Program-made: the position numbers and the translations under genes | From: Candidatus Hermodarchaeota archaeon | GTDB taxonomy: Archaea; Asgardarchaeota; Lokiarchaeia; Sigyniarchaeales; SOKP01 | Assembly: GCA_048885525.1 (NCBI GenBank) | Contig: JBHLLP010000008.1 | Span: forward strand, 47,735-111,734 | Reading direction: 5' to 3' | DNA: 64,000 bases | In this document: positions 7,886 to 33,505 of the stretch, piece by piece | Layout: each line of letters starts with the position of its first letter | Numbering within the stretch: the stretch's first letter is position 1 | The notes under the pieces: model-generated | The model's database searches: none | What the model saw: only the letters and a program-made list of their open reading frames with translations | Told to the model about the DNA's origin: nothing

Positions 7886-8158
7886 CTATTTTATTGGGAT
7901 AGAAACAATTTCTTTCATTTTCTTTTCTAATTTTGCTTTTTTAATCGCTGCTTCTATTTCCTCATGCGAAGCTCCTTTTTTAATTTCTACAATTTCCTTG
8001 ATTGGTTCGATGTGTTTATAGTTTACTCTTCTTCTTCGGACTTTTAATCCATCAATAAGAAGGTAATTTTTATCGATAATATCAACAACTACACAGTGAT
8101 ATCCCGCTTCTCTTCCCATAGTCTTTACGCATAATCTTCCAATATCATATACACTCAT
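7886..8158 (-). CDS. rpl14e: 50S ribosomal protein eL14
   Basis: IGRLCVKTMGREAG...VRRRRVNYKHIEP; ATG at 8158 downstream of GGTGA. Confidence 0.95.
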   Translation of the reverse strand: MSVYDIGRLCVKTMGREAGYHCVVVDIIDKNYLLIDGLKVRRRRVNYKHIEPIKEIVEIKKGASHEEIEAAIKKAKLEKKMKEIVSIPIK

Positions 8159-8298: not shown

Positions 8299-8832
8299 TT
8301 ATAACTTTTCTAAGGTATTAAGAATTTTTTCTGCGATTTCCTCAACTGTAAGGTTTTCTGTATTTATTATAAGGTCATATATAATATTTAAATTCTTTTG
8401 ATCACTCAAATCAAAACCATAAAGATTTTTAAATCGTTCTAATTCTGATTTTTCTCTCAATTTAGTCTCTTTTAACTTTTTTTCATAATTAGTATTATCT
8501 CTTTCAGCCATCCGTTTAACTCTGATTTCGAGAGGGCATAATAATAAGATTTTAAAATTGGCTTTAGATTTTAGAAGATATCCACTTAATTGGCCATCAA
8601 TAATTACATTTCCTCTTTGAGCAATTTCATTTATTTTATCATCTAGTTTTCTATCAATATTTGGATTTTTTTCTACATACTTAGTAAATTCTTCTAAAGT
8701 CATATTCATTTCTTTTGCTAGATCTCTAAAAGCTTGACCCGTACTATAGAATTGGATGCCTAAGTTTTCAGCAATTAATTTTCCTATTGTAGATTTTCCA
8801 GTTCCATGCAGTCCTGAAATGGTTATAATCAT
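8299..8832 (-). CDS. cmk: Cytidylate kinase (archaeal type)
   Basis: IITISGLHGTGKST P-loop, GQAFR, YDLIINT; between eL34 and eL14. Confidence 0.93.
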   Translation of the reverse strand: MIITISGLHGTGKSTIGKLIAENLGIQFYSTGQAFRDLAKEMNMTLEEFTKYVEKNPNIDRKLDDKINEIAQRGNVIIDGQLSGYLLKSKANFKILLLCPLEIRVKRMAERDNTNYEKKLKETKLREKSELERFKNLYGFDLSDQKNLNIIYDLIINTENLTVEEIAEKILNTLEKL

Positions 8833-8935: not shown

Positions 8936-9205
8936 CTATTCTCTCCAAACAGCTTCTTTTATTAAAGTTTGAAGACAATTTGCGCAATATCTTCCACTTT
9001 CCAATCTATTCGCCCTTCTTGAAGTCATTTGCGTTTTAACCATTTTTGAAGGTCGTAATCTAGGAATAGATTGAATTGGTCTTTTACAAATCGCACAATT
9101 TGCTCTTTTGGGTTTTCTTCTCCAATAATGAGTGACATTTCGGTTTCCTGGTGTGTTTAATTTTTTCCTTGCTTGAGCTTTGGATCTTAATCCGGGACGT
9201 GTAAT
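8936..9205 (-). CDS. rpl34e: 50S ribosomal protein eL34, non-canonical (ATT) start; absent from ORF track
   Basis: Manual translation (I)TRPGLRSK...TPGNRNVTHYWRRKPKRANCAICKRPI...RRANRLESGRYCANCL...VWRE*; canonical position upstream of cmk. Confidence 0.93.
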   Translation of the reverse strand: MTRPGLRSKAQARKKLNTPGNRNVTHYWRRKPKRANCAICKRPIQSIPRLRPSKMVKTQMTSRRANRLESGRYCANCLQTLIKEAVWRE

Positions 9206-9293
9206 TGCGATTACCTTTTGTATTTTTCAAATTACTAATTAAATTATATGATGTTAAATAACAGAAAAAATATTAATTTTATCATTTCAATTA

Positions 9294-9914
9294 TTATTTA
9301 AGATTTAACCTATGTTGAAATTCTTTAAATATTTGGTATAAATCATCTATTAATTTTTCTTTTAATTTAGTATTAGATGTAAGTTCATCAATTTGATTTA
9401 TAATATTTTTTTGTATTAACCTAACCTTTTCTAACAAATTATCTAATCCGGGAAATTTACTTAAGTTGTGTATCAATTCATCAAATAAATTAAAAATCAA
9501 GTCTTTTTTTATTAAACCCTCTAAAGTTAATGCGTCCATAATAGTTATAAAAGAGGAGGTTATTTCAGAGGTAATACCCGGTAATTCTAAGAAAGTATGA
9601 TTTTTTTTGGTGATATTTTTATCAGATAAGTTTAATGTAGAAACTCTGTTTATGAGATCTAATGCTGAGTTATATTCTTGTGATAGATTCATTGTTTTTA
9701 AGAGATCGGGTAGAGGAATTTTTTTTTCTTTTAATATAAAATTTAACTTTAAAAGATTGTTCATCGCATTTTTTAAAGCCTTTCTGAAAAAATTATCATT
9801 TACTATCCCTTTTTGATACTTATTATTCAAATTTGTTATTGATTTAACTAAAGCAAATAGTTCAGATTCAATATTGAATTCTATATCTGAGGTGTTATTA
9901 TTATTCTCTACCAT
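9294..9914 (-). CDS. vps28: ESCRT-I subunit Vps28-like protein
   Basis: SELFALVKSITNLNNKYQKGIV, EITSSFITIMDALTLE and DLYQIFKEFQHRL align with Vps28 N- and C-domain motifs; ATG at 9914 preferred. Confidence 0.8.
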   Translation of the reverse strand: MVENNNNTSDIEFNIESELFALVKSITNLNNKYQKGIVNDNFFRKALKNAMNNLLKLNFILKEKKIPLPDLLKTMNLSQEYNSALDLINRVSTLNLSDKNITKKNHTFLELPGITSEITSSFITIMDALTLEGLIKKDLIFNLFDELIHNLSKFPGLDNLLEKVRLIQKNIINQIDELTSNTKLKEKLIDDLYQIFKEFQHRLNLK

Positions 9915-9978
9915 TTTAAATTTAAATATGTAAAAAAATACAATTTTTATATAACATTCGGAGTAAAAATTAATAAAT

Positions 9979-10881
9979 CTAACCAAATAATGATGGGCGT
10001 AAAAAATAGAATATAATCGCAACTATTATTCCAATAATTATTGTAGGGATTAATACTCGTGTGGTAGAAGAATTACTTAATTCTCTTATAGCGAGGGTCA
10101 TCAAAATAGGGACCCATGATGCAATAGCTATTGCATCAATGATATCTAATGCTGCCCAAGTTCTCGCATTGAATAATTGATCAATATTAACAGCATCTAC
10201 AGTTGGAAATCCAACAAGTATAATTAAAATCTTGATAGCATTTAATAATAAGAAAGGTGTGAATGCACATAACATCATTTTAAATTTGTATGAGCCTTCT
10301 AGTTGTAACATCGTGCCACCTTTATAAATACTAAATGGGCTTATTTCTGTTTCTTTAAATTTTTCTTTTTGTTCTTTTACTCCTCCAAAACGTTTTTCTA
10401 GTTTATCTGTGAATCCTACTGCATAATTAGCACCTTTAGTAAATAACCATATTAGAATTCCAAAAAATATAGTTTGAAAACAAAATCCGAATATAAAAAA
10501 TGCTCCAAAAAAACTAAAACCATATAAAAAATGAAGAAGTGATAAGGGTGGAGCACCAGCAAATTCAAAATGAGAAAAGAAGGCTAAACCCATTAGTCCA
10601 TATAATAATGAAGAAAATAATAAAATTAGCCATCCAGGTGCTTTACTTCTTTTATGGTTAATATCAAAAAAAGCCTTCGGAGGGTTCACGAAAAGATAAA
10701 GAATCTTCAAATACAATGGGTATGGAGTTGTCCATTCTGCTTCATATCTCCTAAAAAATCTAATATTTTCAATCTTCTCGGTTTTTAATCTAATACCACA
10801 AAAATTGCATGCAAAACTATCAGCACTATTTTCATTTCCACACCTAGGACAACGTTGAAACGCTGCAACTGTCTGAGACAT
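9979..10881 (-). CDS. Zinc-ribbon + Yip1-domain membrane protein
   Basis: CPRC...CNFC ribbon, LFVNPPKAFFDI Yip1-type motif, about 5 TM helices. Confidence 0.75.
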   Translation of the reverse strand: MSQTVAAFQRCPRCGNENSADSFACNFCGIRLKTEKIENIRFFRRYEAEWTTPYPLYLKILYLFVNPPKAFFDINHKRSKAPGWLILLFSSLLYGLMGLAFFSHFEFAGAPPLSLLHFLYGFSFFGAFFIFGFCFQTIFFGILIWLFTKGANYAVGFTDKLEKRFGGVKEQKEKFKETEISPFSIYKGGTMLQLEGSYKFKMMLCAFTPFLLLNAIKILIILVGFPTVDAVNIDQLFNARTWAALDIIDAIAIASWVPILMTLAIRELSNSSTTRVLIPTIIIGIIVAIIFYFLRPSLFG

Positions 10882-32998: not shown

Positions 32999-33490
32999 TT
33001 AATCTCCCTCTAAAGAGTCTTCTAAATCATCAATTTCTAAATAATCTTCACTATCAATATCAGAAATTGGAGCTTCAATCATTGCTTCTAAACTTTCAAT
33101 TTCTTTTTGTGATATTCCAAGATTTAAAATTTTAAAACCTCTTTTTTGACAATAATCAATAAGAGCTATGCGCTTTTTAGCTCCCAATTTACCAGAAATT
33201 TTGATCGCATTAAATTTCTTGTTTAAATATTTTAAATCTTGTACTGTAGTAACTCTCACCTCTTTATACCCAGATGGATGTAAATCCCTTACTTTTTTTG
33301 GGTTTCGATATCCTACTGTTGGAGATTTAACCCCAGATTTTTTTTTCTCTCTTGTTTTTGAATCAATACCTCTTGATTTTCTCCAAGAATCTTTTACTCT
33401 TTTATATCTCCACGATTCAACTCGTCTAAATGAAGGTCTACTTTTATTCCGCATTTTTCGAAGTTCCATTAATCTTTTATCCTGTACCAT
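32999..33490 (-). CDS. rpl32e: 50S ribosomal protein eL32 with acidic tail
   Basis: RPSFRR, WRKSRGIDSK, LHPSGY. Confidence 0.96.
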   Translation of the reverse strand: MVQDKRLMELRKMRNKSRPSFRRVESWRYKRVKDSWRKSRGIDSKTREKKKSGVKSPTVGYRNPKKVRDLHPSGYKEVRVTTVQDLKYLNKKFNAIKISGKLGAKKRIALIDYCQKRGFKILNLGISQKEIESLEAMIEAPISDIDSEDYLEIDDLEDSLEGD

Positions 33491-33505
33491 GATAATTACC
33501 TCAAT

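Follow-up and report, generated by a model that had tools for sequence, protein, structure and literature searches.

The eL34 locus and its gene models

The window analysed here is a stretch of 64,000 nucleotides from a Loki-type Asgard archaeon, whose relatives' proteins are named "Promethearchaeota archaeon" in NCBI. Its minus strand carries the gene for ribosomal protein eL34 in the usual archaeal order eL34-cmk-eL14e, with all three genes on the same strand and the eL14e assignment resting on a Pfam score below the cut-off. The VPS28-like (ESCRT-I) gene adjoins this cluster on the upstream side, and an A/T-rich spacer of 88 nt separates its frame from the ATT discussed below. The features of the locus, all on the minus strand, are as follows.

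9294..10022, minus strand: VPS28-like (ESCRT-I) frame upstream of eL34 (Pfam VPS28, 37.4 bits)
9241..9250, minus strand: A/T block catataattt, aligned with the conserved ATTATATTAG block of relatives
9229-9227, minus strand: TGA, in frame, read directly from the sequence and closing the eL34 frame upstream
9223-9221, minus strand: ATA at which the window's own public model begins (P0001, 95 aa, MQKVIAITRPG), six codons too early
9209..9217, minus strand: Shine-Dalgarno-like (SD) sequence AAGGTAATC of eL34, with one internal A-for-G mismatch to AGGTGATC
9205-9203, minus strand: ATT, the putative initiation codon, placed by alignment with the Met1 of orthologues, by upstream stops and by conservation
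9205-8936, minus strand: coding region of eL34 (rpl34e), 89 codons with the ATT as the first, closed by TAG (8938-8936)
9043-9041, minus strand: ATG (Met55), the first canonical in-frame start of eL34, located after the first CxxC
8299..8832, minus strand: cmk (cytidylate kinase), the next gene 3' of eL34, with an ATG start (Pfam Cytidylate_kin2, 89 bits)
7886..8158, minus strand: eL14e-like open reading frame (weak Pfam L14e match, 20.9 bits, under the cut-off)

The eL34 frame (9226-8936, minus strand) opens with the sequence TGA(9229-9227) AAA ATA CAA AAG GTA ATC GCA ATT(9205-9203) ACA CGT CCC GGA, and inspection of the whole frame confirms the claim of the initial annotation that no ATG, GTG or TTG occurs between the TGA and the conserved N-terminus; none is present before Met55. 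The encoded protein is a regular eL34. It matches the Pfam family Ribosomal_L34e (PF01199) with 65.5 bits (cut-off 27) over profile positions 3-93 of 94, its best PDB matches are archaeal eL34 chains (E = 3e-16), and its zinc ribbon is complete, with C37, C40, C74 and C77 aligned with the cysteines of solved eL34. A hypothetical product begun at Met55 would comprise 35 residues and would lack C37 and C40. In the solved Thermococcus and Pyrococcus chains (PDB 6SKF, 4V6U), residue 2 aligns on residue 3 of the ATT-started protein, so that the N-terminus defined by homology falls within one residue of the ATT. The window's gene therefore resembles an ordinary archaeal rpl34e in family, length, zinc ribbon, neighbourhood and N-terminus, but differs from it in that the start is ATG there and there is no canonical start here.

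One might suppose that such a gene is simply broken, or that the ATT is an error of sequencing or assembly, and that eL34 is not made from this locus. Nothing beyond the missing canonical start speaks for this. The frame is intact and is the sole copy of eL34, with one match in the whole 3.58 Mb, 99.3%-complete genome, and strong purifying selection, accompanied by synonymous variation, is evident directly after the ATT. Since an eL34 gene devoid of a canonical start is shared by 45 independent assemblies from the genus, a sequencing error is excluded, and we regard the probability that the locus is defective as negligible.

It had also been proposed that gene callers would miss the gene. This was correct in part: NCBI records of these metagenome-assembled genomes (MAGs) do annotate an "L34e", but their starts are inconsistent, with at least five different N-termini, and some of the models are shortened. 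Four kinds of model were distinguished.

From the ATT: MPRPG...
From isoleucine codons one to three codons upstream: MIPRP..., MIIPRP..., MTIPRP..., MKVI...
From a TTG leucine codon: models of 84 residues
From ATA 9223-9221 (the window's own model): P0001, as listed above

The ATA of P0001 is probably a misplaced start, given its location 5' of the SD. Another frame, of 62 codons, is opened by an out-of-frame TTG at 9230-9228; relatives do not conserve it, and it was dismissed.

These records raise the alternative that translation starts at another non-canonical codon further upstream, such as ATA 9223-9221 or ATC 9211-9209, giving eL34 a short N-terminal extension. In addition to the public models just described, this reading can draw on the fact that most species possess an in-frame ATT inside a GGTAATT motif. 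However, the ATA is placed 5' of the SD, and the ATC overlaps it, leaving zero spacing. Moreover, the stretch upstream of the ATT is unconserved or broken by stops in other species; read as codons, it shows no conservation of amino acids, and nowhere is the sequence more variable than in the spacer. The comparison described in the next section bears further on this alternative.

The start position across the genus and beyond

The eL34 gene was located in 135 genomes of the family and in 16 of other families, and the 5' ends were read for 89 loci from relatives. The codons found at the start position were the following.

Own genus, 52 species: ATT 42, ATC 3, GTT 1, ATG 6
Sister genus, 13 loci: TTG 12, ATG 1
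Ten further genera of the family and four genera of other families: ATG, with one TTG

The tabulation of the start triplet across relatives, which the initial annotation had put forward as a check, thus shows ATT to be the rule within the genus. In 16 other genera, the orthologous codon aligned with the ATT of the window is ATG or TTG; within the genus, 45 of 52 species are devoid of any in-frame canonical codon at or upstream of the start position. One species (L056) has kept the ATT but has gained an ATG three codons upstream. Six others have an in-frame stop just ahead of the ATT. In L057 the two adjoin (TAA ATT), in L012 and L047 the stop is found two codons upstream of the ATT, and in L017, L039 and L040 the distance is three codons. 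No start is possible further upstream in these species, and in the first three the stops exclude any upstream start at all. Taken with the position of the SD, this makes an N-terminal extension quite improbable as the general explanation.

The pattern of conservation places the beginning of the coding sequence at the same point. Among the 52 species, a block A-A-G-G-T-A-A-T is conserved at 77-92% from -12 to -5 (87-92% from -11 to -5), it is followed by a variable spacer of 4 nt, and a strict three-base periodicity then begins exactly at the ATT, with codon positions 1 and 2 invariant and position 3 variable. To follow the start codon itself, a tree was built from the coding sequence after the start codon together with the downstream flank. 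In this tree the genus forms one clade (SH-aLRT 95) in which all deep branches carry ATT, and independent changes of the start codon have occurred four times to ATG, twice to ATC and once to GTT. By parsimony, positions 1, 2 and 3 of the start codon have changed 1, 0 and 6 times, respectively, on the genus tree; the comparison sites gave 6-19 changes for neighbouring four-fold degenerate positions and 8-16 for the spacer. At the third position 43 species have T, 6 have G and 3 have C, and A was never observed. This pattern is the signature expected of an A-U-N start codon with a weakly constrained third base. Neither an isoleucine sense codon nor non-coding DNA matches this signature, and both were rejected as descriptions of the ATT.

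The same data bear on another possibility, that the AUU is a selected regulatory device specific to eL34, serving either autoregulation by free eL34 or tuning to the initiation factor aIF1, as infC is tuned to IF3. That 42 of the 52 species still carry the ATT with which the genus began might be read in this way, as might the fact that ATA, though common as a start elsewhere in the genome (see below), is never found at this position of eL34. Against this, the third base is about as changeable as a synonymous site, reversion to ATG has occurred four times, and the same protein is started with TTG in the sister genus and with ATG in the rest.

Two side observations concern individual loci. The second codon of the window's gene (9200-9202, minus strand) is ACA (Thr), whereas all 51 of the other species of the genus (51/51) have CCN (Pro). 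In the eL34 gene of genome G022 (L024) the codon at the start position is GTT, two mismatches from AUG, behind AAAGGTGTAATTACT; the start there must be either this GTT or an in-frame ATT two codons upstream.

The Shine-Dalgarno motif and the initiator tRNA

The 3' end of the 16S rRNA of this genome is GGATCACCTCCT, from which it follows that the full SD is GGAGGTGATC; AGGTGATC, with which the eL34 motif was compared above, is the complement of the 16S 3' end. In the eL34 leader, 6 nt separate AAGGTA (9217-9212) from the ATT or, equivalently, the ATT stands 5 nt past GGTAA. This value of 5 may be compared with the ATG genes of the genome, in which 4-9 nt, most often 6, separate the A of GGTGA from the start. 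The initial annotation had noted that the spacing is that of two canonical starts in the window, and reading all three sites bore this out: GAGGTA, 6 nt and ATG for eL32, and GAGGTG, 6 nt and TTG for the roadblock gene. The SD of eL32 (window about 33480-33505, minus strand) is itself imperfect; it reads GAGGTAAT, with A for G of GGTGAT, 6 nt before the ATG. The imperfect GGTAAT variant is therefore recurrent and not peculiar to eL34.

AGGT is kept between -17 and -4 in 45 of 45 eL34 loci without a canonical in-frame start, and within the genus it is absent from five of the seven loci that have one. When the comparison was reduced to independent contrasts between loss of the SD and gain of a canonical start, three were in the expected direction, none was against it and two were neutral. 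The co-variation of SD loss with reversion to ATG, resting on three of five independent events, is thus not significant (sign test, P = 0.25) and was set aside. Three of the five loci without AGGT (L003, L033 and L034, from genomes G005, G098 and G077) form a single clade with ATG, in which the SD motif is missing together with most of the leader that the window has, and a TTAATATT box is found about 24 nt before the ATG. The eL34 mRNA of this clade may be leaderless, and its ATG in the absence of an SD fits the idea that ATT needs one. In the window, the A/T block at 9241..9250 is a possible TATA box, which would give a leader of about 15-20 nt.

The leader was also inspected for signs of a regulatory fold. 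RNAalifold, applied to 25 species over the interval from -55 to +36, predicted 0 pairs, so that an autoregulatory fold of the eL34 leader is unsupported.

A further class of explanations invokes another mode of initiation: a dedicated initiator tRNA with a different anticodon, editing of the RNA from U to G, or reinitiation after translation of a small upstream ORF. The last of these might be suggested by the stops that are often found just upstream of the ATT, as in termination-reinitiation arrangements. However, no conserved upstream ORF or start was found among the relatives in the variable, A/T-rich leader. As for a special initiator, the one initiator-type tRNA gene found has the anticodon CAT, in a partial search that covered the 34 tRNAs of the aragorn set. 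This gene (contig 32, 9579-9689, plus strand) possesses A1:U72 and the GGG/CCC anticodon stem, and it is interrupted by a 32-nt intron adjoining the anticodon. The genome is rich in introns; aragorn reported 13 tRNAs, and 34 when introns were allowed, a total which implies that many tRNA genes must carry unusual introns. Searching the genome with the anticodon-arm pattern GGG-N-T-NNN-CCC returned matches that were mostly T-loops or random sequence. Finally, the exchanges among ATT, ATC, ATG and TTG at the start position are those that near-cognate decoding predicts. We therefore consider these other modes very improbable.

In combination, the alignment with Met1 of the orthologues, the upstream stops, the SD spacing and the periodic conservation support near-cognate initiation at AUU, as had been suggested for this gene. 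Three elements of this picture are what we infer from the sequences, namely the start of translation at AUU, the identity of residue 1 as methionine and the part played by the SD. We assign a probability of roughly 0.85 to the reading in which an SD-led eL34 mRNA would be translated from the AUU at 9205-9203, with Met-tRNAi pairing to it, to yield the normal 89-residue product. The points that weigh against this reading are the internal mismatch in the SD, the GTT of L024, with its two mismatches from AUG, the modest statistics of SD loss given above, and the archaeal literature considered below.

Isoleucine codons as probable starts genome-wide

It was of interest to compare eL34 with the rest of the genome. 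The context of start codons was tested genome-wide (INDEPENDENTLY) in all stop-to-stop frames of at least 100 codons, scoring in-frame codons that follow a perfect 5-mer match to the SD at a distance of 5-7 nt and precede any canonical start, with duplicates removed. The eL34 gene is left out of these counts because its frame is short and its SD imperfect. The SD-anchored codons were distributed as follows.

Canonical codons: ATG 151, TTG 42, GTG 8
Isoleucine codons: ATT 48, ATA 29, ATC 10

Among non-canonical codons, ATT, ATA and ATC make up 26% of those anchored by an SD, compared with 10% of internal codons and 8% in the +1 frame, an enrichment at SD-anchored 5' ends with an odds ratio of 3.15 (Fisher P = 3e-16). 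These values imply about 59 true isoleucine-codon starts, to be set against 201 canonical ones by the strict SD criterion.

Ten candidates (L092-L101), in which the next canonical codon is 48-157 codons downstream, were tested individually; they are located on contigs 2, 15, 17, 19, 22, 24 and 47 of the window's own genome. A Pfam domain was present in seven of the ten, and in all seven (7/7) it begins before the first canonical codon. The domains are those of ATP synthase subunit D, peptidase M28, ThiF, alpha/beta hydrolase, CorA, HIT and rubrerythrin. Because they begin 20-130 codons before the first canonical codon, these seven genes must be started at an ATT or ATA preceded by an SD. The AUU start proposed for eL34 is thus not special to that gene; as judged from these counts and domains, it is one instance of a genome-wide usage of ATT, ATA and ATC.

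Asgard archaea possess eukaryote-like initiation factors, and two aIF1/SUI1 genes were found in this genome, on contig 32 (32305-32520, minus strand) and contig 2 (79646-79861, plus strand; L102 and L103). The 5' end of the contig-32 gene reads TAA GAC AGC ATT AAA GAT, and there is no canonical codon before the C-terminal part, so that ATT is its sole possible start. The contig-2 gene probably starts at ATA, 8 nt behind GGAGGTGA. A duplication of aIF1 as the cause of relaxed stringency was rejected, since only one aIF1 gene is present in most genomes of the genus. In Sulfolobus, aIF1 discriminates against AUU and in vitro prevents the binding of the 30S subunit to an AUU model mRNA (PMC4705826). 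This weighs against AUU initiation in eL34, and at the same time it suggests, given that an aIF1 gene here is itself started at ATT, that genes with AUH starts could respond to the level of aIF1. The ATT of this aIF1 gene and the Sulfolobus discrimination are the remaining points in favour of a device specific to eL34; on the other side, the trait is common to dozens of unrelated genes. Considering this together with the drift of the third base, the outgroup codons and the leader, in which no conserved pairing is predicted, we judge such a device to be unlikely.

The reading that we favour, near-cognate initiation at AUU, may be formulated as follows. On a leadered eL34 mRNA, pairing between the SD and the anti-SD would set the AUU in the P site, where the ordinary initiator Met-tRNA (CAU) would pair with it, tolerating a U-C mismatch at the third position, and the product would be normal eL34 of 89 residues. 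The ATT would go back to a single replacement of an ancestral ATG at the root of the genus, and was probably fixed under strong A+T mutation pressure (the genome has 29% G+C) in a lineage that tolerates such starts. Since then the codon would have drifted between ATT, ATC and ATG about as fast as synonymous sites change. In this lineage, then, a third-position near-cognate behind an SD would suffice for an essential ribosomal protein. A broader proposal, which we advance tentatively and think less likely than not, is that third-position proofreading is relaxed throughout this Lokiarchaeial family, so that behind an SD the codons AUU, AUC, AUA and AUG would be nearly neutral alternatives; the AUH set would include eL34, ATP synthase subunit D, CorA and aIF1.

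Reviews of archaeal initiation name AUG, GUG and UUG alone as start codons (PMC7531240; PMC4705826), and ribosome profiling in Haloferax observed near-cognate sites that were then set aside (PMC7261190). The GUG and UUG starts resemble the one proposed here in that non-AUG initiation would employ the initiator tRNA on SD-led mRNAs, and a TTG is in fact used at eL34 in the sister genus. They differ in that their mismatch is at codon position 1 and is accepted as normal, whereas that of AUU, AUC and AUA is at position 3, and these codons are absent from the archaeal lists (PMC7531240). A search of the literature on AUU starts in Asgard and other archaea found one anecdote, a 2026 paper in which "a rare ATT start codon" was suggested for AtubA, a tubulin gene from a Kariarchaeaceae MAG (PMC13394414). 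That case is also from an Asgard archaeon, the ATT was deduced from a missing N-terminal strand and a plausible distance to the ribosome-binding site, and there too the database model is too short. It concerns a single gene in a single MAG and lacks a comparative tabulation, whereas the ATT of eL34 has been traced through 52 species, through outgroups and into a genome-wide pattern.

In bacteria, the AUU-initiated gene that invites comparison is infC of E. coli, encoding IF3 (Butler 1987, reviewed in PMC4705826). In eL34, as in infC, the place of AUG after a Shine-Dalgarno site is taken by a conserved AUU, a third-position near-cognate for the initiator tRNA that would be sensitive to a fidelity factor. 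Unlike infC, eL34 is an archaeal ribosomal protein gene, the fidelity factor would be aIF1 and not IF3, and autoregulation is putative; furthermore, dozens of genes appear to be involved in this genome, as against one or two in bacteria. Another bacterial gene initiated at AUU is pcnB. The predicted start of eL34 is a well-documented near-cognate AUU start of an already known kind.

The significance of this start is tempered by two considerations: ATT is among the allowed starts of NCBI table 11, and regulation specific to eL34 is unsupported by our analysis. A practical consequence is that gene finders restricted to ATG, GTG and TTG shorten or lose such genes, and sets of marker genes can suffer. 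We know of no cultured member of the genus. The lineage-wide pattern of starts is a more interesting phenomenon than eL34 itself. Within it, an essential single-copy gene in which the ATT has survived while the genus diversified into some 50 species would be a clean natural marker of AUU starts in Asgard archaea, in contrast to the rejection of AUU by the Sulfolobus factor, and the swaps among ATT, ATC, ATG and TTG at one fixed position may offer a comparative handle on how strictly archaea select their start codons.
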